Origin: Candidatus Woesearchaeota archaeon
Lineage (GTDB): Archaea > Nanobdellota > Nanobdellia > Pacearchaeales > GW2011-AR1
NCBI GenBank assembly: GCA_964361295.1
Contig: CAYIAD010000001.1
Location: forward strand, 1-43,512
Length of the DNA stretch: 43,512 bases
Direction of reading: 5' to 3'
Under the pieces are notes generated by a model. It was given only the letters and a program-made list of their open reading frames with translations. It had not been told where the DNA came from and did no database searches. Of the stretch, positions 15,780 to 39,769 are shown in pieces (the first letter of the stretch is position 1; every line of letters starts with the position of its first letter). Both the position numbers and the translations under genes were made by a program.

Positions 15780-15800
15780 TTAATTACTCCAAAAAATATT

Positions 15801-16784: not shown

Positions 16785-16794
16785 TTTTAATTAA

Positions 16795-17757: not shown

Positions 17758-17763
17758 TTTATT

Positions 17764-18768: not shown

Positions 18769-18784
18769 ATTCCTTAAATTTTAT

Positions 18785-19834
18785 TTACGATAGTAAGTCT
18801 TCTATTACTGTTTTGTTTAATTTTTTATAATCTGAAAAAGATAATTTAAAACAAGGTATCCCTTCGATCCAATCTTCATGTGTTAAAGCTTCTTGCATTT
18901 CTTCTTTTTCATAAGCTTTCTTCAGTCGACCCATATCAGGATTTTTTGCTATCTCTACTTCTCTTAAAATAGAAAATGCTTTGTATGGATCCATTCTCTC
19001 TATTCTCGGGGCATCATCTTTAGAGTATTCTGGAAATACTATTCTAGTTATTCTGCATTTGCTTCTTGTCCTAACTCCAAGAAAGCTTGCAAAATTTTTC
19101 CTAGCAATGTCTACGCTTGCATCCAAATCTAATTTTCCCGATTTGATTAACTTCTCAATATAATCTTCATCTATATTTTGTGTTGCTTCTACAATAGAAT
19201 AATCGTCTAGTATTCTTGATAACCCCTTTGTATCATAAACTGATTTCAACCTAAGGTGGATTGGAACGGGTAAATAAAAACCGGTTAATCCCTCTTTGGT
19301 TTTTTCAACTAACGTATGTTCATCCATAACAAGATTTGAAGATAAATTCTCTAAGAACCATAATAATAAAGATGTTTTTCCTGCAAAAGAATTTCCTGGA
19401 ATTAATATTCCCTCTGATCCAAAACTTACTAAAGAAGAATGGAATAATGCTTTGTTCCTTGAAGAATCTTGACTAAAGTACCATTTTTTTATTATCCTAG
19501 TAACTCCACTCTCATCTTTCGGTATATAAGATTCCACTACAAACTCATTTTCTCTTGGTATTAGGATAGTCATCACCTTTTCCTTGTATCTAAAAAAATC
19601 TATTGCTGGTAAAGGTCTAGACTCATCTAAAGAAGTTCTAGCAAAGGGATATTCTTTATTTTTAACAATTCTAACTGGAGAACCAGATATAACTTCTATC
19701 TTTAAATCTGCATAGACTTCTTTAGAACTAGTGATAACTGGCTCATCAATATTTTTTTCTATTCTCGTTAAATATTCTTGTGGAGCATCTATAAGTATTT
19801 TTTTTTCTCCAAGATAATTGAATAGTCTAAACAT
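18785..19834 (-). CDS. HPr kinase-like P-loop protein (paralog of 17764-18768)
   Basis: ILIPGNSFAGKTSLLLWFLENLSSNLVMDEHTLV...LTGFYLPVPIHLR matches its neighbour. The two also share N-terminal blocks (YLGE..I.D.P..Y). Confidence 0.55.
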   Translation of the reverse strand: MFRLFNYLGEKKILIDAPQEYLTRIEKNIDEPVITSSKEVYADLKIEVISGSPVRIVKNKEYPFARTSLDESRPLPAIDFFRYKEKVMTILIPRENEFVVESYIPKDESGVTRIIKKWYFSQDSSRNKALFHSSLVSFGSEGILIPGNSFAGKTSLLLWFLENLSSNLVMDEHTLVEKTKEGLTGFYLPVPIHLRLKSVYDTKGLSRILDDYSIVEATQNIDEDYIEKLIKSGKLDLDASVDIARKNFASFLGVRTRSKCRITRIVFPEYSKDDAPRIERMDPYKAFSILREVEIAKNPDMGRLKKAYEKEEMQEALTHEDWIEGIPCFKLSFSDYKKLNKTVIEDLLS

Positions 19835-20750
19835 TGTAATTTCTAAGATCCTCCTCTATAGAGGGTCCTACTCCTACAATTCTTCTTGATTGTTGAATTT
19901 CTTTATTCTGCATCCATCTTTCCTTTGAGAAATATCCCTTTGGATGATCTAAATGTAAAACTTCAAAACGTTCTTCGGTAGGAAATTGAAGAAAACCAAA
20001 CGATTCTTTTAATTTCCATTGCAAATCTGCATCCTGACATCCCCATCCAGCAAATCTTAAGGAAAATCCACCCACCAGATTAAATTGTTTTTTGAGCATT
20101 AATGTTCCACCTGCATGAGTCTCTAAAGTAGAGTAAAATGGTTCATATCCTTTTGCTGAATCTCTTATATAATTTTCATAATCTGTTTCTGTATAAAGAA
20201 AAGTTTTCATTCTTCCTGATTCAAATTTCTTAAAAATCTTCATGCCAACTTTATGTGAGCCAGTTGCTAGATATGGCTTAGATCTATCTAAATGACTTAG
20301 AGAAAGTTCTATTCCATTTAATTTTGTATCTTCACTAAATTCTTGAAAGCATTCCAAGGGTAATCTTTTCATAGGAGGTCTAAATAGAATACCTCCATTT
20401 AGTTCTTTTAAGAGTTGAATAGATTCTTTTAAGAAATAAGGATTTTGGAAGATTATATCTCCATCGCTACTATAAACAAAGGGATTATTGCATTCGCTGA
20501 CTGCTTTATTTCTTACTACTCCAGGACAGAAAAATTCTCCGTCTTTATTACTTATTGGAATATGAATGTATTTTATGATACTCAGAAAATTATCTTTTTT
20601 TAAGGTAGGGGATCTCGATTGTTCTACTACTACAACCTCCAAATCTACTTCTTTTTGAAGACCCATCGAATCTAACACTAAATTGACTCTGTCCTCTTTA
20701 AATACACCATAAAAAGGTATTGCTACACTTATTTTTTCTTTTGAATTCAT
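19827..20750 (-). CDS. GT-A fold glycosyltransferase (GT2-like, galactosyltransferase-type C-terminal motif)
   Basis: Motifs are ISVAIPFYG...LEVVVVEQS, a DxD (SSDGDIIF), and GWGCQDADLQWKL followed by LHLDHPKGY. Confidence 0.65.
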   Translation of the reverse strand: MNSKEKISVAIPFYGVFKEDRVNLVLDSMGLQKEVDLEVVVVEQSRSPTLKKDNFLSIIKYIHIPISNKDGEFFCPGVVRNKAVSECNNPFVYSSDGDIIFQNPYFLKESIQLLKELNGGILFRPPMKRLPLECFQEFSEDTKLNGIELSLSHLDRSKPYLATGSHKVGMKIFKKFESGRMKTFLYTETDYENYIRDSAKGYEPFYSTLETHAGGTLMLKKQFNLVGGFSLRFAGWGCQDADLQWKLKESFGFLQFPTEERFEVLHLDHPKGYFSKERWMQNKEIQQSRRIVGVGPSIEEDLRNYNV

Positions 20751-20775
20751 TTTCCTTTAAATTCTTTTAAGGCGG

Positions 20776-21738
20776 TCATTTTTCCCCATACTCTTTTTTT
20801 AATATTTCTTTATCATATTCAACTGCTAATTTTACTCCATTTTTCTTTCTTTCAGAACTTTTTTCCTCATTAAGAGCCCACATTTTTGGAGAGACATATC
20901 CTTTTGGATGATCTAAATGGATAACTTCTAATTCTGGAGGGAAAAATTCTAATTTGTACAGCTCTCTAAATTTCCATTGTAAATCTGAATCCTCACACCC
21001 CCAATTTATAAATCTCTCACAATATCCCCCCAAAGCTATAAAATGAGATCTTCTAAATAAGTTTGATCCACAATGTCTATTTTCATTCCAGTAAATTGGC
21101 CAGAAATTGAAATTGTCATCTGATCCAAGTCTTTCTTCAACATATTTTTTATAATCTTCTATTAAAGAAGTAAAAGTTTTCCTGTAATTTGCTTCTTTGC
21201 TATCTTTTTCAAAAATCTTTAGCTCTCTATATGAAGTAGATGTTTTAACTAAAAATTCTTGATTAATGACTAACTTTTTAAGTGCTTTTTCAAAACCTAG
21301 AGAATTACACCATTGATTAAACTCTTCAAAATTATCTTTAGGTAATCTTCTCATAAATGGACGGAATAATGCTTTGTTTGGATCTGTTTTAATAAAATCG
21401 AGTAATTTTTTTAGAAAATATGGATCTGGGAAGATTACATCCGCATCCATAGTATAGATATAATCTTTTGTAGAATTTAAGATAGCAATATTTCTCACTT
21501 TTCCTGGATTAAAATCACTTAAGTTTTCTCGTGGTTTGTGATAAGTAAAAGCATATCTTACTCCCTCAATTGAAGGAAATCTTCTAGTCTCTCCTTGTTC
21601 AGATACAACAATTTCTTTATCTATATCTTTTTGCATTTTTATAGAATCGATGCATCTAAGAATTCTCTGAATATCAAAATTTCCATATAATGGAATAATT
21701 ACACTTATTCCTTCATTTTGTCGCATAAAATTACTCAT
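20776..21738 (-). CDS. GT-A fold glycosyltransferase (paralog of 19827-20750)
   Basis: Motifs are ISVIIPLYG...EIVVSEQG, a DxD (TMDADVIF), and NWGCEDSDLQWKF followed by IHLDHPKGY. Confidence 0.65.
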   Translation of the reverse strand: MSNFMRQNEGISVIIPLYGNFDIQRILRCIDSIKMQKDIDKEIVVSEQGETRRFPSIEGVRYAFTYHKPRENLSDFNPGKVRNIAILNSTKDYIYTMDADVIFPDPYFLKKLLDFIKTDPNKALFRPFMRRLPKDNFEEFNQWCNSLGFEKALKKLVINQEFLVKTSTSYRELKIFEKDSKEANYRKTFTSLIEDYKKYVEERLGSDDNFNFWPIYWNENRHCGSNLFRRSHFIALGGYCERFINWGCEDSDLQWKFRELYKLEFFPPELEVIHLDHPKGYVSPKMWALNEEKSSERKKNGVKLAVEYDKEILKKEYGEK

Positions 21739-22782: not shown

Positions 22783-22802
22783 AATATTTATAAATTAGTT
22801 TT
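22783..22802 (+). promoter_or_regulatory. Promoter 20-mer AATATTTATAAATTAGTTTT (identical to 8428-8447)
   Basis: The TATA box (22787-22794) ends 21 nt before the ATG at 22816. This argues against the TTG at 22801 used by the ORF track. Confidence 0.55.
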
Positions 22803-22815
22803 GCGTTTGTTACAT

Positions 22816-25587
22816 ATGAAAAAGTGGGTGATTTGTGTAATTTCAATGTTAGTTTTAACCGGATTATTTTGTGGAGTGGTAGATGCGAGTTTCAGCGTCG
22901 GTAATTTATCTCATTCTATACAAACTTCTTATGGACCAGGGACAAATATAACTGGTTGGATAAATATCAGTTTTGTGAATCAGTCAGGAGGAAGTTTATT
23001 AAAAGATTCAAGTGGAAATTCAATCATATTGCTTAAATTACTTCGAAACCAAACAGAGTATGATTATTCTTGTTTCCCATCGGGATGTGGTAATTCTTAC
23101 TTAGAGTCAAACTCAGAAACAACAAAAACATTTAATTTAGTAACTGGTGAAGAAAAATTAGTAGGAATAAAAATAAGTGGAGAGGTTACAGGAATAAGTT
23201 TCAAGGGACTCAAGCTAGAAAGCGATGCGGATTTAAATTGTTATAATCAGATTAAATTGGATTTTCTCGACGATGGAACTTATGAGAAAGGAAATAATAA
23301 TTCAAATGAAGATTCTTGCAGTTCTCTAAGAGATTACGGATGCTATGATTCTGGGAAATCTACTAGTGAAAGAAATATTGGCCAGATTCCTTATTGCCAG
23401 AGAATTGAATTAACAGAATCTCCTGGATTTAGACTTGGGGGATGGATAAAAAAATCAGGAACAGACTCAACAATAAAAATGTTCTTAAAAAATATTGATA
23501 GAGAAACTATTGAAGGAACAACATGCACTCTTCCAACAGCATCGGAAAGTGGCAGTGAAATTTATTGCAGTGTGAACTTTTTAATCACAGAAGCAAAAGA
23601 ATATTATGTTTGTATAAATTCTAATGTAGATACAAATTACAAAATTCTGGGGTATGATAATCTAGATAAATGCGGATTTTATGGGGATGGGTTTGAAGAG
23701 GAAAGGGCAGCATATAGCATCTTTGCAGAAGGTAAAAAATTCGGGGCAGTAGGAAATATCAGCATCACAAATTATCTTCCCAATGAAAATACTCTTTCTG
23801 GTTTGATTGAAGATTATTTAATTTCAAATTATAGTGATGAGGATTATAGCTGTTCTGGAGATTGCATTGCTGATTGTTCTTCTGGGTGTATTGTTCCAAT
23901 AAAGATAAAATCTGGAAAAAATCAAAGAGTTATTTTAAAAAACTTGGATGTTGAAATATCAACAGCGACGGGAAAAGTATCTTCTACAAACTTTTATGAT
24001 TTATCTAAAGATTATCCAAAAATAAATTCTGGATTTGGAAAGCTGAAAATAGATAATGGAGGATTTTCTGCCCCAATTAGTTATGGAAATTCTACATTTA
24101 ATTTATATCTAGGAGAAAGCAAAATTTTCTCAGAAAAAATTTCAATTGAAAGAGTGCCTACAATAATCAGCATCAAACCATCTGTAACTGTCTCTGCATT
24201 TCCAACAGATTTTTCAGTAAAAATAAATAGCTCTTCTAATATTACAAAATATTATTGGAAATTTGGAGATGGGCAAGATACATTTACCTCTACAAATAAA
24301 GTTACTCATACTTATAACTCAACTGGAACCTATAATTTAGAAATAGAAGTTACTGATAATAAAGAAAGAAGTTCTATAAAAACTTTTCAGATTTTAGTAG
24401 GAGATCCTAAAGCACTTATTGGAAGTATGCTTAATGAAAAAACTGGAAATCTAACTAAGATAAAATCTCAGCTAAGCAAGTTTAGTTCATTCTATCAAAA
24501 TCAATTAAATTTGGCACTAAAAACTGAAGAATTGAATAATGACTTAAAAGATTTGGAAAGAAGATACAAGGCATCATTTAGCGAGGGAGAGTATAATAAA
24601 ATTTTAGGTGAGTTAATTGAAGTAGAGGTTCCTTCTTATTTAGAGATTTCAACTAAAGGAAATAACCTTTTGTTCTTCCCGTCGGAAAATGCAATAAAGT
24701 TTGATGTTCTTGAAGAGATAGAAAAGGGAAGTTATGACCCCGGCAAAGAGTCTGAATATAAAGATGCGATATTAAGCTGGCAACAAGAAAATTTAGAAGT
24801 TAGCATTTCATTTGAGGAAATATCCGGCACATACGGACTGGAACAGAAAAAAATTGGAACATTTTATGAATTAGATATTAAAAGAATTATAGATACGACT
24901 TATAATCCTTATTTAATTATTAAAGAAATTAATGGGCTTGAATTTGAAGAAAATTATTTAGAATCAGAAAAATCAGGATACAAATATATACCAATTAGTT
25001 CAGATAAAAAAGTAGGATTTTTTACAACAGAAAGTTTAGAATTTAGTGAACTTCCGATGTTTATTTCTCCTGGAACTGATAGATTAACTTTAAGCGAGGT
25101 AAATGTAGGATTAGAAGAAGACAAACCAATTAATTTTGCATTGCTATCTATGGTTTTAGTTTTGGTATTTTTAATTGGAATTGTAACTTATATAATTCTT
25201 CAGGAATGGTATAAAAAGAAATATGAAAATTATTTATTCAGAGACCAGACAAATTTGTACAATTTAATTAACTATATTGATAATACAAAAAGAAAGGGGT
25301 TTAGCGACAGGGACATTGAAAAAAGGTTGCTAGAAACTGGGTGGAATTCAGAACAGGTAAATTATGCTACGAAGAAATATGCTGGTAAAAGAACAGGGAT
25401 GATTGAGATTCCTATTGGTAAAATTCTGAATAAATTTACGGGTAAGAAAGATATTTCTGCTCAACAAAATGCACCTATGCAAACTCCTCCAAGGGCAGTG
25501 GTTCCATTTCCTATAAGGCCGAAAATACCCTCGGTGATAGTAAATCAAAACAATTTAAAAGGCAGGGAAATGTTTTTTAAGAAATGA
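22816..25587 (+). CDS. Large secreted surface protein with PKD domain and C-terminal TM anchor plus cytoplasmic tail
   Basis: It has a signal peptide (MKKWVICVISMLVLTGLFCGVVDA), a PKD-like block YYWKFGDGQDTFTSTNKVTHTYNSTGTYNLEIEVTDN, and the TM segment INFALLSMVLVLVFLIGIVTYIIL. The start was moved to the first ATG. Confidence 0.75.
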   Translation: MKKWVICVISMLVLTGLFCGVVDASFSVGNLSHSIQTSYGPGTNITGWINISFVNQSGGSLLKDSSGNSIILLKLLRNQTEYDYSCFPSGCGNSYLESNSETTKTFNLVTGEEKLVGIKISGEVTGISFKGLKLESDADLNCYNQIKLDFLDDGTYEKGNNNSNEDSCSSLRDYGCYDSGKSTSERNIGQIPYCQRIELTESPGFRLGGWIKKSGTDSTIKMFLKNIDRETIEGTTCTLPTASESGSEIYCSVNFLITEAKEYYVCINSNVDTNYKILGYDNLDKCGFYGDGFEEERAAYSIFAEGKKFGAVGNISITNYLPNENTLSGLIEDYLISNYSDEDYSCSGDCIADCSSGCIVPIKIKSGKNQRVILKNLDVEISTATGKVSSTNFYDLSKDYPKINSGFGKLKIDNGGFSAPISYGNSTFNLYLGESKIFSEKISIERVPTIISIKPSVTVSAFPTDFSVKINSSSNITKYYWKFGDGQDTFTSTNKVTHTYNSTGTYNLEIEVTDNKERSSIKTFQILVGDPKALIGSMLNEKTGNLTKIKSQLSKFSSFYQNQLNLALKTEELNNDLKDLERRYKASFSEGEYNKILGELIEVEVPSYLEISTKGNNLLFFPSENAIKFDVLEEIEKGSYDPGKESEYKDAILSWQQENLEVSISFEEISGTYGLEQKKIGTFYELDIKRIIDTTYNPYLIIKEINGLEFEENYLESEKSGYKYIPISSDKKVGFFTTESLEFSELPMFISPGTDRLTLSEVNVGLEEDKPINFALLSMVLVLVFLIGIVTYIILQEWYKKKYENYLFRDQTNLYNLINYIDNTKRKGFSDRDIEKRLLETGWNSEQVNYATKKYAGKRTGMIEIPIGKILNKFTGKKDISAQQNAPMQTPPRAVVPFPIRPKIPSVIVNQNNLKGREMFFKK

Positions 25588-25635: not shown

Positions 25636-26277
25636 ATGGTGGTGAAGATATTTAAGGACTTTTTTAGGAGAATTTTCTCTAGTATGTTTAAGGTAAAAGA
25701 GGATATAAAACTTGGATTTTATGGACCTCCAAACGCAGGAAAAACTAGCTTGGCTAATAGAATTTGCAAGGACTGGACTGGAGAAGAAATTGGAAGTGTA
25801 AGCAAGATACCTCACGAGACTAGAAATGTTCAATTTAAAGAAAAAGTTGAAATAGAGTATAAAGGTAAAAAGATGACTCTTAAAATGATTGACACTCCTG
25901 GGATTTCTACAAGAATTGATTATGAAGATTTTTTAAAGTTCAATATGGATAAAAAAGAAGCTAAGAAAAGAGCGAAAGAAGCAACTCAGGGAGTTATTGA
26001 AAGCATTAAGTGGTTAGACGATATGGACATGGTTGTAGTTGTTTTGGACTCGACAGAGAATCCGTATAATCAAGTTAATATAACTATTATTGGAAATTTA
26101 GTCGCGAGAAAAATACCAGTTTTAATTGTAGCAAATAAAATTGATATGAAGAAAGCAGATATCAAAAAAATAGAATCAGCATTTCCAGAATATGAGGTTG
26201 TTGGGATTAGCGCAAAATATGGCAAAAATTTGGAGGAATTTTACGAATCAATTTTCAGATTGAGCAAAGAATTATAA
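25636..26277 (+). CDS. Small GTP-binding protein (archaeal GTPase)
   Basis: The G1 motif is GPPNAGKTSL, G3 is DTPG and G4 is NKID. Confidence 0.8.
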   Translation: MVVKIFKDFFRRIFSSMFKVKEDIKLGFYGPPNAGKTSLANRICKDWTGEEIGSVSKIPHETRNVQFKEKVEIEYKGKKMTLKMIDTPGISTRIDYEDFLKFNMDKKEAKKRAKEATQGVIESIKWLDDMDMVVVVLDSTENPYNQVNITIIGNLVARKIPVLIVANKIDMKKADIKKIESAFPEYEVVGISAKYGKNLEEFYESIFRLSKEL

Positions 26278-26322
26278 ACATTAAAATTAAAAACTATATT
26301 TTACAATATATATAATAAAAAG

Positions 26323-26730
26323 ATGGTGAAAGAAAACAAAAAAACACTGGGAAAAATAAAGGGATTTACAATTCAGTTCTTGCCTTATTCTGAAATTAGA
26401 AATCTAGACAGTGATGAGAGAATAAAAAAAATTCTTAATATAATTTTAGGAAATAGTATAATTCTTTTACAGGGGAAATTAAGCGCAGAAGAAGAATCCC
26501 GGTTAATTGGAGACACAATGGCGATGATTGGGCATGTAAATAATTTCAAAGGGATTGAACTTGCAGTGATTTCCAATAGTGAAGAAAGTTTTTTTGGTAA
26601 AGTCAGATTTGGTCTTGTGAAGGCACTTTCTGGAGGAGATTTAGGAGCGATAACAATTATTGGTCCTGCTTCTATTGTAAAAGAAATAAAAAGAAATCCA
26701 AAGAAGATTGAATTAATGTTAAATAAGTAG
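26323..26730 (+). CDS. Conserved archaeal protein of unknown function (DUF2073-like), GTPase-linked
   Basis: Its position between a GTPase and a Zn-ribbon protein matches a gene triad I recall as conserved in archaea. I see no catalytic motif. Confidence 0.45.
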   Translation: MVKENKKTLGKIKGFTIQFLPYSEIRNLDSDERIKKILNIILGNSIILLQGKLSAEEESRLIGDTMAMIGHVNNFKGIELAVISNSEESFFGKVRFGLVKALSGGDLGAITIIGPASIVKEIKRNPKKIELMLNK

Positions 26731-26731
26731 A

Positions 26732-26745
26732 GAAAAGATTAAATA
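26732..26745 (+). promoter_or_regulatory. BRE/TATA-like box GAAAAGATTAAATA
   Basis: It ends 21 nt before the ATG at 26767, which opens a 13-codon micro-ORF. The Zn-ribbon gene ATG is at 26826. Confidence 0.45.
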
Positions 26746-26825
26746 GTTTATTTCTTTAATTAAATTATGCCAATGGCATCCTTTAATTTTTGTTATTGGC
26801 TAAAATAAAATTCAAAAATCAAAAA

Positions 26826-27248
26826 ATGCCACACCAGTGCGTCAAGTGTTCTAGAATTATTCCTGCTGGAAGTCGGGAGCTTTTAGAAGGATGTGCAGAA
26901 TGCAAAGGGCATTTCTTTTTTTATATTAGAGATGATCAATTAGCTAGAATAAGAGAAAATCCAGTTGAAATTCCAGAAGGAGACAAAGCATCAATTGAAA
27001 AAGACATCAGAGAAATGGCTGGAATTGTAGAAGAAAATGCTCCAGTAATTTTGGATATTGAATCTGTTAGAGTAACTGGAGATGGAAAGTTTGAAATAGA
27101 CATTGTTAATTTGTTTAAAAAAGACAGACCTTTGATTTACAAATTAGAAGAAGGAAAATATATCATTGATTTAGCTACGACATTAAGCAGAAATCTTAAG
27201 GATATAAAAGAAATTGTTGATCCTGATGAAAAGAAAAAAGAAGATTAA
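26826..27248 (+). CDS. Zn-ribbon protein (archaeal DUF2072-like)
   Basis: MPHQCVKCS...GCAECKG gives a CxxC...CxxC ribbon and the C-terminus is acidic. The ORF-track start at 26790 is TTG, so the first ATG is used. Confidence 0.6.
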   Translation: MPHQCVKCSRIIPAGSRELLEGCAECKGHFFFYIRDDQLARIRENPVEIPEGDKASIEKDIREMAGIVEENAPVILDIESVRVTGDGKFEIDIVNLFKKDRPLIYKLEEGKYIIDLATTLSRNLKDIKEIVDPDEKKKED

Positions 27249-27288
27249 TAAACTATATTCTCTATTATACGTTATGAGTCGTAAAAAA

Positions 27289-27810
27289 TTAGAGGGAATT
27301 TTCAACATTATGAATTTTTTTAATAGTTTTAATAATCTTTGAAATCTCTGATTTTTTTCTTAGAATTAAATATTTTTTATTGTATTTTTTTATTATCTCG
27401 CTATGTGCATGTAACGATACAGGATTTTTTGTATAGTGATATTTGCATACTTCTTTCGCTAATTTAATTGCCTCAAAAAGAGTATCCTTTTTGTGCTTTA
27501 CTCTAAATAGATGTCTGCTTAAGATTCTATAAATACAAAGAATTTTGGAGGTATGCATAAGTATAATTATATCGGCTTTTTTGAAAGCATCTTCAGCGTA
27601 ATTCGACCATGTTCCCTCGGTTATCCATTCTGATAAATTACAAATTTTCTGAAGTTTTCTTACCCTCTCTTCCACATCTCGAATCTTGCTGTATTTAATT
27701 TCATACTTTAAGTCATCTAATGCATAACTTTTTATTCCAAATTTCTTAGATAAAATCTTTGCTAAAGTTGATTTCCCCGAACCATAAATCCCACAAATAT
27801 GTATTCTCAT
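27289..27810 (-). CDS. P-loop NMP-kinase-like protein (adenylate kinase / FlaR-type)
   Basis: The Walker A motif is ICGIYGSGKSTLAKIL, and the ~170-aa size fits. It is the last gene of the seven-gene operon. Confidence 0.6.
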   Translation of the reverse strand: MRIHICGIYGSGKSTLAKILSKKFGIKSYALDDLKYEIKYSKIRDVEERVRKLQKICNLSEWITEGTWSNYAEDAFKKADIIILMHTSKILCIYRILSRHLFRVKHKKDTLFEAIKLAKEVCKYHYTKNPVSLHAHSEIIKKYNKKYLILRKKSEISKIIKTIKKIHNVENSL

Positions 27811-28391
27811 TTGGTTAGATAATCTCGATTATTTAGATATTCCACTAAACACCCTTGCTCTCTCAATTCTATTTCTGAAACAGCACAATTACTAAATTTT
27901 AATTTTTTTATGGCATCAACAGGATTCATTCCTAATTGCAATCCTAAAAACATCTTTAAAAACCAACCATGTGAGATTAAAATATTACGTTCTCCACCCC
28001 GAGAGATTATAATATCTAATCCTTGAGTGGAGCGATTAACCAAATCAGATAAACTTTCTCCTCCTTCAGGTCGAGTGTTTATTGGATCGGATAAACTTAA
28101 TCTTTCAATATCCGCCTTTCTGTTCCCATTCCAAACACCATTATTTATTTCTCTAAATATAGGGCTATAATATACAGGTATATCTCTATTCCTTGAAATT
28201 TCTTTTGTTAAAACTTTACATCGATAGGCATCACTAGAATAACAATTATTAAAATCTTCAGATTGTAATCTCCTTACTAGTTGTTGAATTTGTTCGTAAC
28301 CTTTTGGAGAAATATCTCCCTCGACTTCATGCTGGACTATTCCTTGTATATTTGCTAGAGTAACTGGATGTCTAATCATAATTAATTTCAT
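27807..28391 (-). CDS. Histidine phosphatase (PGAM superfamily), RHP variant
   Basis: Motifs are IMIRHPVTLAN, YSSDAYRCKVLTKEI, PEGGESLSDL and LISHGWF. Confidence 0.75.
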   Translation of the reverse strand: MKLIMIRHPVTLANIQGIVQHEVEGDISPKGYEQIQQLVRRLQSEDFNNCYSSDAYRCKVLTKEISRNRDIPVYYSPIFREINNGVWNGNRKADIERLSLSDPINTRPEGGESLSDLVNRSTQGLDIIISRGGERNILISHGWFLKMFLGLQLGMNPVDAIKKLKFSNCAVSEIELREQGCLVEYLNNRDYLTK

Positions 28392-28392
28392 T

Positions 28393-28983
28393 CTATACCT
28401 CTTGATTGAATATATTTAAATTGAATTCCCCCTTGTTTAATTCTCCCATTGAAAACGTACAATTTTTTATTCTTATTTCAGATATGGTCTTTTTTAAGTC
28501 ATAGCCGATAAGGTACCCAATCAAAATGCGAAGAGGAAGATTATGACTTATTATTAAAATGATCGAATCTTCTGGTAAAGAGTTTATTTTAATCATTAAT
28601 GCTAATAATCTTTCTTTTACATCCCTCAAACTATCCCCTCCCGGAGCCTTTCTAGTTTCAAAAGGCTGTTTATTTATTTCTGTCCAGTCAACTTCAGAAT
28701 TCTTCAATCCTTCAAACAAACCATTGGATTTGTCTCTTAATAAGGGTGTAATTAATAAATTATAATTATTTTTATTCTTCAAAAGTTCTTGAGCAGTCTT
28801 TATACATCTTGGCGAATCACTGGAGAAACAAAAGTTTACCATATATTTATTTAGATATTCTTTCATTGAATTTAATTGATTTCTCCCATTTTCTGTAAAA
28901 TTGGCAGTGTGATGTAGTTGTTGCATTGCTAATAAATTTTCTTCTGTTTCTGGATGCCTGATAAAAATTAATCTTTTCACCAT
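28393..28983 (-). CDS. Histidine phosphatase (PGAM superfamily), RHP variant
   Basis: Motifs are IFIRHPETEEN, FSSDSPRCIKTAQEL, APGGDSLRDV and IISHNLP. Confidence 0.7.
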   Translation of the reverse strand: MVKRLIFIRHPETEENLLAMQQLHHTANFTENGRNQLNSMKEYLNKYMVNFCFSSDSPRCIKTAQELLKNKNNYNLLITPLLRDKSNGLFEGLKNSEVDWTEINKQPFETRKAPGGDSLRDVKERLLALMIKINSLPEDSIILIISHNLPLRILIGYLIGYDLKKTISEIRIKNCTFSMGELNKGEFNLNIFNQEV

Positions 28984-29561
28984 TCCGACCTCCGAATTTC
29001 TCTTATTGTTGGATCTGTTTTGCCGGAATTATCTATAAGTTTGCATTCTTCATAATTTTTTGCAATCTCTAAGTAGCCAGTTCTTTGCCTATTTAGGAAT
29101 TCTGAAGAATATCCTACAAATCCATCTCTTGCTCTTTCAGATATCCTTTTAATAAGAACATCTAAAGGTGCCATAAGAATAAATGTTTGATTCGGGATAG
29201 GAATTCCTAACCTTAAATTTTTTTCAATTATTCTAGAAATTGAAAAATCTTTTTGAAATTGTAAAACTGCACTTGTATAGTATCCTCGATCTAATAATAC
29301 AAAACCAGGTTCATCTCTCAAATCTAAATATTTTGAATATACCTGTAACCTTGCTTGTGCAACCATATTAATTATCTCCTCTGGCTCAGAGATAACACCC
29401 TTTCTTATATTTTTTCTTACTTCTATCATTTCAGGATATTCGGAGTCCTTAAAAGTTCTGCAGGAAATTCCTTCTACATTAAAGCATTCTTTTAAATTAT
29501 TTAAAATGGTACTCTTTCCTACTCCGTTTGGCCCTTCAAAACAGATTAGTTTTGTTTTCAT
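28977..29561 (-). CDS. Thymidylate kinase-like (dTMP kinase family) P-loop kinase
   Basis: LICFEGPNGVGKSTILNNL, ..ARLQVY.. and VLLDRGYYTSAVLQ match the Tmk pattern (fEG.dG.GKsT ... DRy..S..aYQ). Confidence 0.65.
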   Translation of the reverse strand: MKTKLICFEGPNGVGKSTILNNLKECFNVEGISCRTFKDSEYPEMIEVRKNIRKGVISEPEEIINMVAQARLQVYSKYLDLRDEPGFVLLDRGYYTSAVLQFQKDFSISRIIEKNLRLGIPIPNQTFILMAPLDVLIKRISERARDGFVGYSSEFLNRQRTGYLEIAKNYEECKLIDNSGKTDPTIREIRRSEW

Positions 29562-30439
29562 ATTTCTCCTCTAAGAATTTTTTCTAATTCGGGTATTGTT
29601 TCTTTTAATGCTTCTGGTCTTTGTATCGCTTGTGATCCTATTTTTCTTGTCCAAATCATTAAGCAATATAGCCTTTCTCTTACCTTATCATAAGGCTTAT
29701 TGTAACCCAACCGGAAGCTCCTAACTCCCCTTTCTCGAGCTATATTAAAAGTATGGCAATAATGTCCACTATCCCAATTAGGATCTCCAGAAGAAACGAT
29801 ATCTAAATCTAAGACTGCTGATATTTGTCCATTTTTAAAAAGTAAATTACCTAAATGAAAATCTGCATGGAGAAAATATGGCAAGGAAAAATGAGTTAAG
29901 CTAATTCTACCTTCTTGATACGCTTTTTCCAAATCTCTCCCAAATCGAGAGTATAAACCAGGCGATTTTTTAACACGATTAATAGACTCTTCAAAGAATT
30001 TGTCAGTAAAATCAACCCATGAATCATCTTCACCCATTAGATTGGGTTGCAATCTTCCATACCCTGAACAGGGCAGATTATGTATTGCAGATAATACCTC
30101 TCCTGCAGATTTATGAACACTTTCTTTTTCTGATAGAGTAGATTTTGATAGATCTACATGCTCTCCTTCCACTTTCTTAACTAATAAATATTCGGGGACT
30201 CCCTTATTCTCGGAGGAGTAATTTAATATTTCTGAAACCGGAATCTCGTGGGAATGCAAAAACTCTGTTGCCTTCACTCTTACAACATAATCTTTTACTC
30301 TCTCATGTTTAGGGATTGTTAGTATCCTATCTCCCTGTTCAAATACCCAGTTGTTTCTTCCCCTGTCTATTAAAGTGAAACCTTTCGGAAGTAATTTTAA
30401 TGCTACTTTATATGCTTGTTCATACGAATATCTATCCAT
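29558..30439 (-). CDS. APH/choline-kinase-type phosphotransferase (protein-kinase-like fold)
   Basis: The Brenner motif is FLHADFHLGNLLF, followed by AVLDLDIVSSGDPNWD. Confidence 0.75.
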   Translation of the reverse strand: MDRYSYEQAYKVALKLLPKGFTLIDRGRNNWVFEQGDRILTIPKHERVKDYVVRVKATEFLHSHEIPVSEILNYSSENKGVPEYLLVKKVEGEHVDLSKSTLSEKESVHKSAGEVLSAIHNLPCSGYGRLQPNLMGEDDSWVDFTDKFFEESINRVKKSPGLYSRFGRDLEKAYQEGRISLTHFSLPYFLHADFHLGNLLFKNGQISAVLDLDIVSSGDPNWDSGHYCHTFNIARERGVRSFRLGYNKPYDKVRERLYCLMIWTRKIGSQAIQRPEALKETIPELEKILRGEI

Positions 30440-31049
30440 ATTTATTGCTCTCCTTTTTAATTAGAGGGGATTCTTCGATAATCCATTTACCCGATTCAGA
30501 ACGGGAAATAGTCATATAAGAAGAATTTGGAAATTCGTAATTTAATAGGTATTCTTGAATATCTTCGTTAAATATTAAACAAAATAATATTCTTAAAAAA
30601 GTTCCATGTGACACTACCAAAACCATTTCTTCTTGCTTAAATTCATTTAAAATTTTAAAAAAGGCGGAAGCACGTATAATAACATCTTTTACACTTTCTC
30701 CTCTAGGAATTTTTTTATCTAAAAAACTTCCTTTGACTAATGACCAATCTACTTCGCTAACTAATTTATCTGAAAAATCCCCACTACTTTTCTCTCTTAT
30801 TAAAGGCGTTTTTTTAAACTCTTTATTTATCCTTTTAGAGATTATCTCTGCAGATTCTATCGCTCTCTTTTCATCGCTTGAAATTATTTCATCAAAGTTA
30901 AATTTGTCTAGTTTTTCCTGCAATCTTAATATCTGCATTTTACCCTCATCAGTTAATGAATCTTTTGGACTTTGTAATCTCTTTTCCAGATTATAAATCG
31001 TCTCGCCATGTCTTAATAAAATTATTTTAAGATTTTTACCGGAGTTCAT
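30432..31049 (-). CDS. Histidine phosphatase (PGAM superfamily)
   Basis: Motifs are IILLRHGETIYN, ISSDEKRAIESAEII, PRGESVKDV and VVSHGTF. The ORF-track start at 31091 is TTG, so the first ATG (MNSGKNLKII..) is used. Confidence 0.75.
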   Translation of the reverse strand: MNSGKNLKIILLRHGETIYNLEKRLQSPKDSLTDEGKMQILRLQEKLDKFNFDEIISSDEKRAIESAEIISKRINKEFKKTPLIREKSSGDFSDKLVSEVDWSLVKGSFLDKKIPRGESVKDVIIRASAFFKILNEFKQEEMVLVVSHGTFLRILFCLIFNEDIQEYLLNYEFPNSSYMTISRSESGKWIIEESPLIKKESNKYG

Positions 31050-32406
31050 TTGCTTTTTCAACCCCCTTCTCGTAAGCAGTTTTAGCAACAATTTTATAAC
31101 GATACTCCAAATGAGGATTATCTATTATTTTCTTTAAAGTTTCTTTGGAGACATTTTTATTCCTAGATATAATTCTTAATAAGTATTCGTAACCTTTTTT
31201 ACATCCCTTGTCTACAATTGCGTTTAATATTTTATCGGGACATTCATTATGGCAACATATAGAAGCAAGAACAACCCATTTATCGCTTTTAGAATATCTA
31301 TTAAATATCTCCTCATGCATTTCCGAATCCCCTGATAAACTTAAATTCCATATAACCGCCATTTGTAATAACACATCAGAATCTTCAATTTGATTAATTT
31401 CTGATTTAATAAAATTGCCTTCTAAAAAATTTCTAAATTTATCTGCCCAATCGTAACTTCTTGAAGAGTGAAGATAAGAAATAAACAATTCCCAAATTCT
31501 CTGCTTCAATTCGGCGACATTTTTTATGTGCCCTTCCAAGTAATTTTTAAGATAAATTTCATCAATTATTGAATCGTCTTTAAAGGATTTTCTTTTGAAC
31601 AAAAGAGAAACTGTTTTTTCGTCTAAATAAGTAAGACCTGCTTCGAGAGTCCATTTATTTTGAATTAAAATTTCATTTCGAAGAATAAGAACCACATTAA
31701 CGCTTTCAGAATATTTAGTATAATCTACCAAATTAATTAACCCTCTTTCATAAAGAGAACTAAGAGATTTATAGACTAAAGGAAAATTATCTTCGGTATT
31801 TATTTTTCTTCCTTCAGAAGAATCAATTAAATTAACAAACCATGTTAAAAACATAAAATCTCTTGTTCCACCATGCCCGTATTTTACATTTTTTACTCCA
31901 GGCTTTGTTCTTTGAGTGTAATATTGATCAAAATAGAGTTTTTGGAAACAAAGAACTCTTTCAAATCTTTCCCTTGTGCAATATTCTGTTTTAAGAGCCT
32001 CAATATGATTATTAACATCATAATCGCCATAAATAAACTTTGATTCAACTACTTGATTTCCTTCGGTTATGCTATCTTTTGCATATGCTTCACAGTCTTC
32101 ATAATTCCCCCAATCTGGAATATCAATCTTCTCAAAATTCTCTTTTTCAAGAAGTTTAATAAATTCATTTCTAAAGATTGAATAGTCTTCATTGTCTGCT
32201 TCTCTGATTATCATTATATCGGCATCAGATTCGTCAACCATCTCTTGTCGAGAAGGCGAACCAAAAAGAAAAATAGCTATACCCTTCAATTTTTTGCAGG
32301 GTATTGTTTGCTCTGCTTTCTCTGCAATACTTTGTATTAATTCTCTAAACTTATAGGAATAATTTGTTACATAAACAAATCCTCCATTAACTTTGCATTT
32401 TACCAT
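31036..32406 (-). CDS. GlnD/GlnE-like (protein-)nucleotidyltransferase with helical C-terminal region
   Basis: The Pol-beta NTase motif is FLFGSPSRQEMVDESDADIMII. NVKYGHGGTRDFMFLTW resembles the N-x-K-x-x-x-GG-(L/I)-RD-(I)-E/x block of GlnD/GlnE. Confidence 0.55.
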   Translation of the reverse strand: MVKCKVNGGFVYVTNYSYKFRELIQSIAEKAEQTIPCKKLKGIAIFLFGSPSRQEMVDESDADIMIIREADNEDYSIFRNEFIKLLEKENFEKIDIPDWGNYEDCEAYAKDSITEGNQVVESKFIYGDYDVNNHIEALKTEYCTRERFERVLCFQKLYFDQYYTQRTKPGVKNVKYGHGGTRDFMFLTWFVNLIDSSEGRKINTEDNFPLVYKSLSSLYERGLINLVDYTKYSESVNVVLILRNEILIQNKWTLEAGLTYLDEKTVSLLFKRKSFKDDSIIDEIYLKNYLEGHIKNVAELKQRIWELFISYLHSSRSYDWADKFRNFLEGNFIKSEINQIEDSDVLLQMAVIWNLSLSGDSEMHEEIFNRYSKSDKWVVLASICCHNECPDKILNAIVDKGCKKGYEYLLRIISRNKNVSKETLKKIIDNPHLEYRYKIVAKTAYEKGVEKANELR

Positions 32407-32625
32407 GTTAATTGAATAGATTGGTACTTTTTAAGTTTTTGCTCTGTTGTCACTTATTAGTTATTCTAACTTTTAAGTTAATACAAAATCAATTCTTACT
32501 TTTATAAAAACAAGAAAACTATTTTGTAGAGCGAAGCTAATCTTTTATCCTTTCAGCCCATGTCAAGAGGCATAAAATTTAAAGTGAATCAAAATCTAAA
32601 ACATGTTAAGTCTTGAAATCAAAAT

Positions 32626-32634
32626 AAATATAAA
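32626..32634 (+). promoter_or_regulatory. TATA-like box AAATATAAA
   Basis: It ends 21 nt upstream of the ATG at 32656. Confidence 0.4.
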
Positions 32635-32655
32635 CTATAAATTTGTTTATATTAA

Positions 32656-37194: not shown

Positions 37195-39078
37195 TTATCT
37201 TAATCTCAAAGCATCAAGCAATCTTGGAACATTAGTTTCTGTGTGCGTGAGTTTGTAAAGTGATGACGCTAAATCAAGAGATTTTGAAATTTCTCCATGA
37301 TTAATTAAAATTCTTTTTGGTTTAGGGTATATATTATTAAAGAATGCCATAATCTCATTTCTTCCAGCGTGGGCAGTTAGTCCGTCGATTGTGTCAACTT
37401 CCATATTGATTTCAATTTTTTCTTCTCTTCCTTCGACATTCATGAAAGTTTGTTTTATTCCATCTTGAACTTGTCGTCCTAAAGAACCAGGACCTTGATA
37501 ACATACGAAAACTATTGAATTATTTTTGCTTTCTGCGAATTCTCTGAAATATTCTACTGAAGCTCCACCAACTAACATACCTGAAGTTGCAAGAACAATG
37601 CATGGCCCTCCTTCAATAACTTGTTTTCTTTCTTGAGGAGAGCCAACTCTTGAGAAAACTTCTGAGATAAAAGGATTTTTATCTTGGAAAATTTGTGAGC
37701 GAACATTTACTCCTAAGAAATCTGGATAAGCTGTGTGGATTGCGTTGATATCCCAAATCATACCATCAATATAAATCGGAACTTTTGGAAGTTTTCCTTC
37801 ACGCATTGCATCTTCTAAAATTAACATTGTTTCTTGAGCTCTACCCAATCCTAATTCTGGAATCAAAACTTTTCCTTTTCTGTCAATTGTTTTTCTTACA
37901 ATTTCCAATAATTTTTCTTCTGCCTCTGCTCTTGGTGGAAGTATATCTTCTTTTGCACCATAAGTTGATTCTGTAATTATTGTTTCTACCCTCGGGAAAG
38001 ATGCAACTGCAGGGTCGAGCAATCTTGAACGCCCGTATTTATAATCGCCAGTGTAAACTAAATTGTGTGTTCCATTTCCAATGTTAAGGTGAATCAGCGC
38101 ACTTCCGAGAGCGTGTCCAGAATTATAAAAAGTTAATCTTATATCAGGAGTCACGTCGGTAACTTCATTATAATTTAAACAAATAGAATGCTTTACCATC
38201 TCTTTTATATCTTTAGAAGCAAATAGTGGGGCAGATGCTTGCTTGTAAGCAACACCGATAAAATCTAAAGATAACAAAGCTGCGATGTCTCGTGTAGGAG
38301 GAGTCATATAAACTGGACCTTTGTAACCCATTTTGTATAAATAAGGCAAAAGCCCGACGTGGTCAAGATGTGCATGAGAAATTATTACAGCATCTAGTTG
38401 GGAAATGTCAAATTCTGGAACATTAAAATAAGGGAACTTATCTGTTCCTGAAGAAGCAACATCAATTCCACAATCTAAAAGAATTTTTGAAACAGGAGTT
38501 TGTAATAAAAGGCAAGATCTTCCAACTTGTCGTGCCCCTCCTAAAAAACTAACTCTAACCCATTCGTCAACTTTTTCTGGATTCCAACCAGCATAGATTT
38601 TTTTTCCTATTTGGTTTAGGAATTTTCTTCTGTAAGTATTATTATCATAAAGAACCTCTCTAATATTTTCTGTAATTTTACTTGGGATTGCGGCTGAACG
38701 CTGAATTTGCGGAGTCCAAAGAGTTTCCTGCTTTATCTCGTCGAGAATTGAACCTTGTTTTCCAATAACTAGTCCTGGTTTTTTGGCTTCGATTACAACA
38801 ATGCTTCTATTGATATCAAAAATAATATTTGTAATCTCTGCATCAGTAGGAACAATTTTCCTTATATCTTTTTCAGTCTGCTCTTTATCTTTTAGAATCT
38901 TCGGGTCTGCTCTTAGTTCAATTCTTTTTTTAATTTCATTTACAATTTCACGAATTTTTGACTCGCCTTCTTTGAAGAATTTTTCATTATCTGTATAGAG
39001 AACTACATTTGCTCCTTCAAAATCTGCTTCTACAATTTTTCCTGAAAGTTTTTCTGTTATTTCTTTTAATATGTCCAT
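37195..39078 (-). CDS. aCPSF1: KH-domain beta-CASP metallo-beta-lactamase ribonuclease
   Basis: It has N-terminal KH-like repeats, HAHLDHVG (the MBL motif) and beta-CASP blocks, at ~630 aa. The ORF-track start at 39135 is TTG, so the ATG at 39078 (MDILKEI..), preceded by AGAGGT, is used. Adjacency to psmB is typical of archaea. Confidence 0.85.
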   Translation of the reverse strand: MDILKEITEKLSGKIVEADFEGANVVLYTDNEKFFKEGESKIREIVNEIKKRIELRADPKILKDKEQTEKDIRKIVPTDAEITNIIFDINRSIVVIEAKKPGLVIGKQGSILDEIKQETLWTPQIQRSAAIPSKITENIREVLYDNNTYRRKFLNQIGKKIYAGWNPEKVDEWVRVSFLGGARQVGRSCLLLQTPVSKILLDCGIDVASSGTDKFPYFNVPEFDISQLDAVIISHAHLDHVGLLPYLYKMGYKGPVYMTPPTRDIAALLSLDFIGVAYKQASAPLFASKDIKEMVKHSICLNYNEVTDVTPDIRLTFYNSGHALGSALIHLNIGNGTHNLVYTGDYKYGRSRLLDPAVASFPRVETIITESTYGAKEDILPPRAEAEEKLLEIVRKTIDRKGKVLIPELGLGRAQETMLILEDAMREGKLPKVPIYIDGMIWDINAIHTAYPDFLGVNVRSQIFQDKNPFISEVFSRVGSPQERKQVIEGGPCIVLATSGMLVGGASVEYFREFAESKNNSIVFVCYQGPGSLGRQVQDGIKQTFMNVEGREEKIEINMEVDTIDGLTAHAGRNEIMAFFNNIYPKPKRILINHGEISKSLDLASSLYKLTHTETNVPRLLDALRLR

Positions 39079-39109
39079 GTGAAAATTATTTACCTCTTTG
39101 AATTTAAAA

Positions 39110-39769
39110 TTATCCGTCTTTATACTCTGGCTCAATTGTTTGCTCTACAACTTTTTTTATTCCGTCTTTAGTTATTGTGAAGATATCGATTCCATAACCA
39201 GAGCCTGTATCTCTTTGAGTTGAGGATTTTAAAGATTCTTTTGCTAGGTGAATTCCTTCTTGAATTGTTAAATTTTTTTTGTATTGTCTTTCTAATAAAC
39301 CTAAAACATAAGGCATACCTGAACCAAAATTAGCGTCGTAGTCCTCTACTTTAACTACGCTTCCTGCCGGTTCAATTGTGTATAATTCCACTGAACCATC
39401 TTCGTTGAAACCACCTAAAAGAAATCCTGCTTGTTGAGGAATCATAGAAGGTTGTCTTATTCCGTTGTAACTTATATTTGCCAGTAAACTTGATGCTTGT
39501 TTTATAGTTGGGCGTGAGTGAGATTTAAGTTCTTTAAGCTTTAACTCTGCTGTGAGAATTTTTGGAACTCTTTGAGCATCTGAAACCATTCCTGTAAAAG
39601 AGATTAAAAGATAGTCATTTATCTGCACTGTCTTTTTGTAGGTTTTTCCGACGACAAGATTTCCTGCAGTAATTTGCCTGTCAGAAGCCATTACAACTCC
39701 GTCTTTACAGACAATTCCTAGAATAGTTGTTCCTGTCTGAAGAATATTTTTTTTCAAATCTTTGTCCAT
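39110..39769 (-). CDS. psmB: Proteasome beta subunit
   Basis: The propeptide is followed by GTTILGIVCKDGVVMASD with the catalytic Thr, and ..GSGMPYV.. follows. Confidence 0.9.
   Translation of the reverse strand: MDKDLKKNILQTGTTILGIVCKDGVVMASDRQITAGNLVVGKTYKKTVQINDYLLISFTGMVSDAQRVPKILTAELKLKELKSHSRPTIKQASSLLANISYNGIRQPSMIPQQAGFLLGGFNEDGSVELYTIEPAGSVVKVEDYDANFGSGMPYVLGLLERQYKKNLTIQEGIHLAKESLKSSTQRDTGSGYGIDIFTITKDGIKKVVEQTIEPEYKDG

Follow-up and report, generated by a model that had tools for sequence, protein, structure and literature searches.

Nucleotidyltransferases (NTases) of the GlnE/GlnD/DrrA type are textbook protein nucleotidylylases with few known targets, and one of them, DrrA of Legionella, acts in conflict between organisms. 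Kinases, phosphatases and nucleotidyl transfer are also combined in the routes to ADP- and GDP-heptose (HldE/HddA, GmhB, HldE/HddC) and in the AmgK-MurU-MupP pathway of peptidoglycan recycling. These routes phosphorylate their substrate, remove another phosphate and then nucleotidylylate the product, and AmgK has the APH fold. On a smaller scale, PFK-2/FBPase-2 shows that a paired kinase and phosphatase can together control the amount of a single phosphorylated metabolite. Here, we examine a window of 43,512 nucleotides (nt), by which we mean the whole stretch of DNA analysed, from a Candidatus Woesearchaeota archaeon (contig CAYIAD010000001.1; GC content ~30%). Its minus strand carries, at positions 27289-32406, an operon that joins one GlnE/GlnD/DrrA-type NTase to three kinases and three histidine phosphatases of the PGAM family. 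We suggest, with a probability of about 0.4, that this operon is a version of an accessory, horizontally mobile nucleotide-processing cassette that ends in nucleotidyl transfer.

The seven-gene block is a real, translationally coupled unit. The NTase gene comes first (31036-32406; 456 amino acids (aa), a single module with a C-terminal helical-repeat domain of the LRV/ARM-like kind), followed by PGAM1, a histidine phosphatase of the RHG type (30432-31049; 205 aa from its ATG), and by a kinase of the APH/choline-kinase fold (29558-30439; 293 aa). Next are a Tmk-fold P-loop kinase (28977-29561; 194 aa) and PGAM2, a histidine phosphatase with an RHP motif, RDK in place of RE, and SHN (28393-28983; 196 aa); these two make up an optional module. 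The operon is completed by PGAM3, also of the RHP type (27807-28391; 194 aa), and by its partner, a FlaR-like kinase of the adenylate-kinase fold with an AAA_18 P-loop (27289-27810; 173 aa), hereafter the AK-like kinase. From the 5' to the 3' end of the operon, successive open reading frames (ORFs) overlap by 14, 8, 4 and 7 nt, are separated by a 1-nt gap, and overlap again by 4 nt. The longest ORF for PGAM1 starts at a TTG at 31091; it is the ATG start that gives the 14-nt overlap with the NTase stop codon, and this ATG is kept across orthologous loci. A sequence-only reading of this DNA had proposed this gene count, strand and set of junctions, and the ORF coordinates reproduce them exactly. 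Its domain calls (a GlnD/GlnE-like NTase, PGAMs, an APH kinase, and Tmk-like and adenylate-kinase-like kinases) all hold in Pfam and Foldseek, and the motifs it had picked out, HADFHLGN..DLD in the APH kinase and RHP in PGAM2 and PGAM3, are present.

The only sizeable non-coding gap that adjoins the block is a divergent, AT-rich intergenic region of 249 nt (32407..32655), presumed to hold the operon promoter, with the gene of a CCA-adding enzyme on its other side. At the opposite end, a T6 run right after the last stop codon (27277..27288, minus strand) may be an archaeal oligo-T terminator. A scan for sigma-70 promoters and intrinsic terminators returned counts at chance level, as expected in an archaeon. 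The contig of the window has also been recovered in Hainich groundwater metagenomes.

Gene order is conserved well beyond this contig. Searching 5.8 billion clustered proteins, we found 44 relatives of the NTase at 37% identity or more. Contig look-ups and scans of GTDB genomes and JGI metagenomes yielded 44 loci, which were compared with ORFs labelled using the seven window proteins. A common gene order was found in about 30 independent loci of other genomes, with differing flanks, so that the conservation check proposed in the sequence-only reading came out positive. What is conserved, though, is a set of five genes and not of seven. Wherever there is enough downstream DNA, the core reads NTase-PGAM1-APH-PGAM3-AK-like kinase, and it occurs in this five-gene form in 11 loci (L004, L005, L009, L010, L018, L020, L022, L023, L030, L033 and L035). 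The Tmk-like gene and PGAM2 are inserted between APH and PGAM3 in the window and in L021, and PGAM2 alone is found in L026 and L029; PGAM2 is thus confined to the window (L001), L021, L026 and L029, and the Tmk-like gene is missing from most cassettes. On the gene orders seen, the seven genes of the window are a lineage-specific elaboration of the conserved five-gene core. The elaboration seems to be recent. Given that L018 (NTase 91% identical to that of the window) is without Tmk and PGAM2, while the more distant L021 (82%) has both, the optional module must be gained and lost quickly.

Other variants are equally informative. Five loci (L012, L016, L017, L043 and L052) encode PGAM3 and the AK-like kinase as a single in-frame fusion, which indicates that the two work as one unit. 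Reduced versions also exist: the smallest set combines the NTase with a PGAM and one kinase of the nucleoside monophosphate (NMP) kinase fold (NTase-PGAM-Tmk in L006/L015), and L044 is labelled NTase-Tmk. The 14-nt overlap between the NTase and PGAM1 genes persists down to 39% NTase identity, and NTase-PGAM adjacency recurs in the remote relative L049. All seven window genes are under purifying selection, with dN/dS values of 0.06-0.25 against their orthologues. The families of the AK-like kinase and the NTase are of similar small size (63 matches against 44), as would suit partners that co-evolve. Taken together, the cassette genes are one conserved, co-evolving unit.

The unit is also lost. 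L008, L027 and L028 carry an NTase with 76% identity to that of the window but none of the partner genes, and its motif arginine is gone (KYGHGGTID); this NTase looks like a decaying remnant, judged from its sequence. Truncation of the NTase and loss of its arginine where the partners are absent are what one would expect if the NTase were useless alone. In L008 (8221-9575), the truncated NTase is 405 aa long with no cassette genes after it, and the same arrangement is seen in three independent assemblies.

The cassette is rare and its distribution patchy. Named relatives are few and labelled Nanoarchaeota, and related metagenome-assembled genomes (MAGs) are labelled Woesearchaeota. The GC content of cassette hosts ranges from 0.25 to 0.60 and includes contigs of ~0.55-0.60 GC, one of which belongs to a MAG labelled Phycisphaerae. 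Divergent cassettes (L013, L014 and L015, the last equal to L006) also lie in GTDB representative MAGs titled 'uncultured Methanosarcinales archaeon', with a GC content of 0.41-0.49. If these database labels are right, the cassette is present in possible host lineages of DPANN archaea too.

In Pfam, the NTase matches NTP_transf_2 (23.5 bits against a cut-off of 21), Polbeta and GlnD_UR_UTase (PF08335; 24.6 against 21), and Pfam holds no family dedicated to it. Across 20 aligned sequences, G49-S50, D61xD63, E115-G-N-Q118 and K175-Y-G-H-G-G-T-R-D183 are invariant, and the last of these, KYGHGGTRD (175-183), is the K-x-G-x-G-G-x-R-D signature of GlnE and GlnD. A sequence search of the PDB returned minimal NTases only for this protein, and for the AK-like kinase a match restricted to the P-loop, so that structure prediction was needed for both. 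The AlphaFold2 (AF2) model of the NTase (pLDDT 91) has the N-terminal adenylyltransferase module of GlnE as its top Foldseek match (1v4a; E 4.8e-5, TM 0.50, 338 aligned columns), followed by DrrA (6yx5_B; E 1.1e-3) and the C-terminal module of GlnE (3k7d; E 1.5e-3), and ANT, KNTase and AadA appear at E ~1 only. The C-terminal third gives LRV/ARM-repeat-like matches. The protein is not a GlnE or GlnD orthologue by architecture: it is without tandem NTase modules and without HD or ACT domains, it falls far below the GlnD equivalog models (TIGR01693, 16.2 against 519; PRK03059, 15.8 against 1010), and neither glnA nor glnB turned up in the gene tables of the loci inspected. By motif and model, the NTase is a catalytically intact single module of the GlnE/DrrA type. 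This assignment also speaks against aminoglycoside resistance by a paired APH and ANT, which we rejected since the NTase matches GlnE and DrrA, with ANTs at E ~1 only. As a separate observation, C105 and C389 are invariant in the NTase alignment, and C384, C385 and H386 nearly so; these residues could form a metal site. LRV-repeat proteins with an Fe-S cluster are known.

An exhaustive profile search places the NTase in a wider clade of 224 representative clusters (E <=1e-3), the remote members of which reach 2.6e-13 on PF08335. In the clade members examined, the NTase always adjoins or is joined to a phosphoesterase, the fold of which varies: PGAM in L049, MBL in L046-L048, EEP with Ham1 in L050, and HD, ARMT1 or calcineurin-like in giant fusion proteins. 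In L049, an APH-like kinase, a small pol-beta NTase, a 169-aa protein of no assigned family, the NTase, a PGAM, and TylF-type and other methyltransferases are flanked by McrBC and a type ISP enzyme. L046-L048 encode a small pol-beta NTase, the NTase and an MBL-fold (Apyc1-like) hydrolase, and L046 has PIG-L nearby as well as two NUDIX genes and CYTH. L050 (GCA_040384045.1) has a small NTase, the NTase, an EEP phosphoesterase and a Ham1 nucleoside triphosphate (NTP) pyrophosphatase. Its in-frame stops are best translated as Gly (LF*SPSR for LFGSPSR is one case), which suggests genetic code 25; L050 probably uses this code, as in Gracilibacteria-type bacteria of the candidate phyla radiation (CPR). 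In L012, other nucleotide-handling enzymes are linked to the NTase, a NUDIX gene immediately preceding the cassette and an HD gene immediately following it.

Such enzymes are common additions in the clade, and so are kinases: those of the APH type are often linked to clade NTases, as in L049 and in two of the giant proteins, P0218 and P0250. P0218 (L045, 3-8777; 2924 aa) combines B12-radical SAM, APH and NTase domains. P0243 (4223 aa) holds HD, an ARMT1 phosphatase, B12-radical SAM, the NTase, Bac_transf and GT4-conflict, and in P0250 (5747 aa) GNAT, the NTase, methyltransferases, APH and a calcineurin-like phosphatase can be made out by eye. A gene-calling artefact was rejected for P0218, which is one uninterrupted ORF of 2924 codons under table 11. 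A short motif, RSE[MIV]R, recurs in this protein (nine matches in L045 against 0.64 expected) with varied codons; the repeats may be a linker or a processing site.

Turning to the kinases, two of the three in the cassette have NMP-kinase folds, by their sequences and a structural model. The AK-like kinase is FlaR-like by sequence (PRK08118, E 2e-20; 73.6 against a cut-off of 215), falls in Pfam AAA_18 with no 6PF2K match, and is no adk equivalog (PRK14529, 15.6 against 331). For its AF2 model (pLDDT 92), the top 50 Foldseek matches are adenylate kinases, UMP kinase and AK6, with E values down to 2e-8 and TM ~0.6. The Tmk-like kinase matches Thymidylate_kin (PF02223; E 4e-16, 59.7 bits against a cut-off of 27) and stays under the dTMP kinase equivalog cut-off (TIGR00041, 57.1 against 83.25). 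The active-site comparison suggested in the sequence-only reading gives a divided answer for this enzyme: the fold, the P-loop (GPNGVGKS) and the arginines of the LID (RISERARD) are in place, but the dTMP-binding REPGGT is replaced by KDSEYPEM, with EPGGT of Aquifex Tmk aligned to DSEYP. A [KR][DE]xEY pattern is kept at this altered site in four cassette copies. Judged by this substitution, the Tmk-like kinase is not a bona fide dTMP kinase. The third kinase has a clear APH domain (PF01636; E 4e-17, 63 bits) with H191, D193, N198 and D211-L-D213 invariant and the loop motif LHADFHLGN...DLD. Against solved structures, its family profile finds APH(2'')-IIa, APH(4) and the ACAD11 kinase domain at ~1e-9, and it belongs to no named resistance family (best model APH_3p, 33.6 against a cut-off of 205).

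All three phosphatases match His_Phos_1 with 104-120 bits (E 1.6e-34 for PGAM1, 1e-29 for PGAM2 and 7e-33 for PGAM3). Two more His_Phos_1 genes lie outside the operon, at 6962-8056 (minus strand; E 5e-46) and 14790-15779 (minus strand; E 3e-39), each with an unassigned C-terminal extension of ~135-165 aa and without a P-loop, which brings the PGAM-family genes of the window to five. All five paralogues share R13, H14, R62, R85 and H148; in PGAM2, D replaces E, and the first motif is RHG in PGAM1 and RHP in PGAM2 and PGAM3. The nearest solved relatives of the cassette PGAMs are the broad-specificity phosphatases PhoE, PspA and CobC, not mutases, with PhoE (1h2e/1ebb) and PspA closest to PGAM1. 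All three fall under the CobC, PspA and dPGM equivalog cut-offs (best TIGR03162, 70-82 against 163). Their sequences thus assign the cassette phosphatases to the broad-specificity PhoE/PspA/CobC branch. Assembly of the cobamide nucleotide loop was considered and rejected: CobC is the best NCBIfam match for all three PGAMs, far under its cut-off, and CobS, CobT and CobU are missing. The sequence-only reading had allowed that each enzyme might map cleanly to a housekeeping function, such as a bona fide Tmk. Within the cassette itself, the profile scores do not support this, none of the seven proteins reaching an NCBIfam equivalog cut-off, and a Tmk-like enzyme is dispensed with in most cassettes.

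How might such a set of enzymes work together? In the nucleotide-processing cassette that we favour, the APH-fold kinase would phosphorylate a hydroxyl on a nucleoside- or sugar-like molecule, and the AK-like kinase, joined by the Tmk-like kinase where present, would put more phosphate on a nucleotide-type intermediate. The partner PGAMs would strip phosphates at other positions or reset intermediates. The NTase would then move an NMP, taken from the resulting NTP or from a cellular one, onto a hydroxyl acceptor (a protein or a small molecule), with the translationally coupled PGAM1 as its processing or antagonist partner. Three observations speak for this arrangement. First, an NMP-kinase-fold enzyme is found in every close version of the cassette, which argues for nucleotide-type substrates. 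Second, the PGAM-kinase fusion shares both of its folds with PFK-2/FBPase-2, which argues for a dedicated phosphatase per kinase. Third, the overlapping NTase-PGAM1 pair, together with the interchangeable phosphoesterase of the wider clade, argues that a phosphoesterase processes what the NTase makes, or the precursor of it. The fusions of clade NTases to radical SAM, glycosyltransferase and methyltransferase domains hint at a small-molecule acceptor. The physiological role is probably related to niche or conflict and not to housekeeping.

Several points weigh against this proposal. To our knowledge, all biochemically characterised structural neighbours of the NTase (GlnE, GlnD and DrrA) modify protein tyrosine. 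Conservation of the cassette does not extend to any transporter, nuclease or target gene. The nearest solved relatives of the APH kinase are antibiotic kinases and give little guide to its substrate. NMP-kinase folds suggest nucleotide substrates, yet do not prove them, and the order of the steps is purely one that we infer.

The structural neighbours of the NTase lead naturally to a different reading, a covalent-modification switch on proteins. Here, the NTase would AMPylate or otherwise NMPylate a protein hydroxyl, PGAM1 or another phosphoesterase would erase the mark, the APH kinase and the PGAMs would phosphorylate and dephosphorylate the same or related proteins, and the NMP kinases would only recycle released NMP. 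The top structural matches of the NTase are all protein AMPylases, its C-terminal LRV/ARM-like repeat domain suits protein binding, and the phosphoesterase is the constant, fold-interchangeable partner in the clade members examined, as expected of an eraser. In addition, some members of the PGAM superfamily (SixA, PGAM5 and Sts-1) are protein phosphatases. However, no candidate target gene is conserved in the loci, and every close-family cassette has an NMP-kinase-fold kinase, a type of fold that almost never acts on proteins. Moreover, PGAM branch-1 enzymes are monoesterases, for which cleavage of a nucleotidyl diester is not known. We regard a protein switch as rather unlikely.

Genomic context raises another option. 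In bacteria, clade NTases are found either amid conflict-type genes or within giant multi-enzyme proteins. The fused PGAM3-kinase versions of the cassette, which we call type B, lie among genes of the conflict type. For example, a CHAT-TPR protein and AbiEii/AbiEi are encoded near the cassette in L017 (a 186-kb contig of 0.60 GC from the MAG labelled Phycisphaerae), which also has a full-length fusion of GT4-conflict and PNP (PF20706, E 7e-92). L052/L053 carry genes for AAA+ proteins similar to PDC-M37B and IetA and for a JAB-ThiF E1-like protein, L043 has RelE-like ORFs and L016 has a PIN gene. This association of type-B cassettes and the remote relative L049 with conflict-type genes comes from ~5 loci and is no more than suggestive, which also limits how far it can carry the niche- or conflict-related role that we attach to our own proposal.

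Read at face value, the context would make the cassette a conflict effector aimed at viruses or hosts. A kinase and its partner phosphatase would share a nucleotide pair and, once unleashed, consume ATP or else drain or convert a nucleotide pool, and the NTase would gate or sense. Apart from the conflict-type genes that adjoin bacterial and type-B cassettes (L017, L052/L053, L049, L043 and L016), this is consistent with the patchy, cross-domain distribution, the decay of the cassette in a close lineage, the recent gain or loss of the optional module, and a kinase:phosphatase ratio of ~1:1 with one pair fused. Database searches are less encouraging. PADLOC-DB 2.0 gave the seven cassette proteins weak P-loop or minimal-NTase matches only (E 3e-5 or worse), a PHROGs scan of the same seven proteins gave generic P-loop, PGAM and Tmk matches only, and no relative of the NTase was found among viral contigs and viral structures. 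The flanking genes in Woesearchaeota loci are ordinary, no sensor is obvious and toxicity is putative. On top of this, a futile cycle of the toxin kind under constitutive translational coupling would have to be regulated, and no regulator was found. We consider a dedicated effector decidedly unlikely.

Healing and tailing of RNA or DNA ends, in which a P-loop 5'-OH kinase, a PGAM acting as 2',3'- or 3'-phosphatase and the NTase would repair or mark broken ends, is improbable. Its logic does match the triad of kinase, phosphatase and NTase, and the order of the phosphatase-kinase fusion is that of mammalian PNKP. Likewise, an LDD motif lies ~19 residues past the P-loop lysine in a cassette P-loop kinase and resembles the Asp general base of hydroxyl kinases, and the window has RNA-processing genes close by, among them those of archease and the CCA-adding enzyme. 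Yet these neighbours are not kept at other loci, no RNA-binding domain is present, and the APH kinase is left unaccounted for. It is above all the kinase types (AK and Tmk, not PNK or Clp1) and the lack of any ligase, or of Hen1, in the inspected loci that lead us to disfavour this explanation.

The least probable explanation is housekeeping nucleotide salvage in an auxotrophic DPANN symbiont, with phosphatases stripping imports and kinases rebuilding NMPs, diphosphates and NTPs: a DPANN host of 30% GC, NMP-kinase-fold enzymes and broad-specificity phosphatases would suit it, but we disfavour it because the distribution is tiny, patchy and cross-domain (only tens of sequences in 5.8 billion proteins, with cassettes on contigs of ~0.55-0.60 GC, one from the MAG labelled Phycisphaerae) and close relatives have no cassette or a decayed one, besides which all enzymes score below equivalog cut-offs, the Tmk-like kinase is without the dTMP motif and a GlnE-type NTase has no role there. 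Of the functions listed in the sequence-only reading, salvage is thus the one that loses ground; synthesis or handling of a nucleotidylated or phosphorylated molecule and a role in conflict are both still candidates, and the two are not mutually exclusive.

A bolder idea, which we think unlikely, draws several of these strands together. The cassette would represent a new mobile class of nucleotide-tagging systems, in which the kinases and phosphatases make or license a nucleotide, the GlnE-type NTase writes it on a macromolecule and the phosphoesterase erases it, and which DPANN archaea and some bacteria would use against hosts, viruses or competitors. If so, the clade of 224 clusters would be a family of such systems, with interchangeable erasers and giant fusions.

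A clade of single-module relatives of GlnE, GlnD and DrrA has now been found in DPANN archaea, in a bacterial contig of code 25 and in other bacteria. Discovery of the substrate might bring to light either a new metabolite derived from nucleotides, or a new nucleotidyl mark that is reversible and, with it, a new means by which ultra-small symbionts or defence islands manipulate nucleotides. The question lends itself to experiment, as the five soluble core enzymes (seven in the window) can be directly expressed and assayed.

Among the neighbours of the operon in the window, the plus strand carries genes for an OapA-like GTPase, OapB and OapC (25636-27248), a 928-aa surface protein with PKD domains (22801-25587) and a 704-aa C1 peptidase of the papain family (3262-5376), and on the minus strand lies FttA/aCPSF1 (37195-39135); none of these genes accompanies the cassette in other genomes. 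Seven co-directional genes of ~310-350 aa stand in a row at 14790-21738 (minus strand). Among them are glycosyltransferases of the GT1 and GT2 families, the last is one of the extra PGAM-fusion genes, and the row may serve glycan synthesis. At 12939-14117 (minus strand), a 392-aa protein has a weak C-terminal Polbeta NTase domain (YGS...DIDIF), which makes it the second pol-beta NTase of the window.

In the literature on DPANN histidine phosphatases and NTases, GlnE/DrrA neighbourhoods and FlaR, and in that on Woesearchaeota salvage, RNA-repair conflict systems and glycosyltransferase/radical SAM conflict systems, we found no description of the cassette, in line with the initial impression that it is not a standard pathway. 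The parts are known, as is the logic of a writer with a phosphoesterase (GlnD, DrrA/SidD); neither the clade itself nor the joining of this logic to paired kinases and phosphatases appears to have been described.

Among the closest characterised systems are GlnE and GlnD. The cassette NTase shares with them the Pol-beta core (G-S...DxD) followed by a GlnD_UR_UTase helical domain with K-x-G-x-G-G-x-R-D, and one module of GlnE superposes on the entire 456-aa protein. As in GlnD, the NTase is coupled to a phosphoesterase, which in GlnD is its own HD domain and here is a separate protein of the PGAM family. In contrast to both, the cassette NTase is a single module without HD or ACT, its C-terminus is LRV/ARM-like and neither glnA nor glnB was seen nearby. 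The pair formed by DrrA/SidM and SidD in Legionella is another. DrrA is the second-best structural match, and a writer is again set against an eraser of phosphatase fold. However, the cassette NTase is without the guanine nucleotide exchange factor (GEF) and P4M domains and without a secretion signal, the partner PGAM is not PP2C-like and there are extra kinases.

The other likenesses concern the partner enzymes. PFK-2/FBPase-2, like the fused cassettes, holds a P-loop NMP-kinase-like kinase and His_Phos_1 in one polypeptide, although in reversed domain order; the cassette kinase has no 6PF2K match in Pfam and the window genes are separate, with a 4-nt overlap. T4 Pnk, bacterial Pnkp-Hen1 and mammalian PNKP share the kinase, phosphatase and NTase triad and the phosphatase-kinase fusion. 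They differ in that the cassette kinases are AK- and Tmk-like, its PGAMs are not of the HAD or calcineurin type, its NTase is GlnE-type and not a ligase, and Hen1 is missing. Finally, the heptose and AmgK-MurU-MupP routes share the enzymatic logic and the APH fold with the cassette, and remote clade NTases are joined to, or lie near, glycosyltransferases and methyltransferases. Unlike the cassette, these routes use Rossmann-like sugar-1-phosphate NTases and HAD phosphatases, and the cassette is without a sugar isomerase or a glycosyltransferase.

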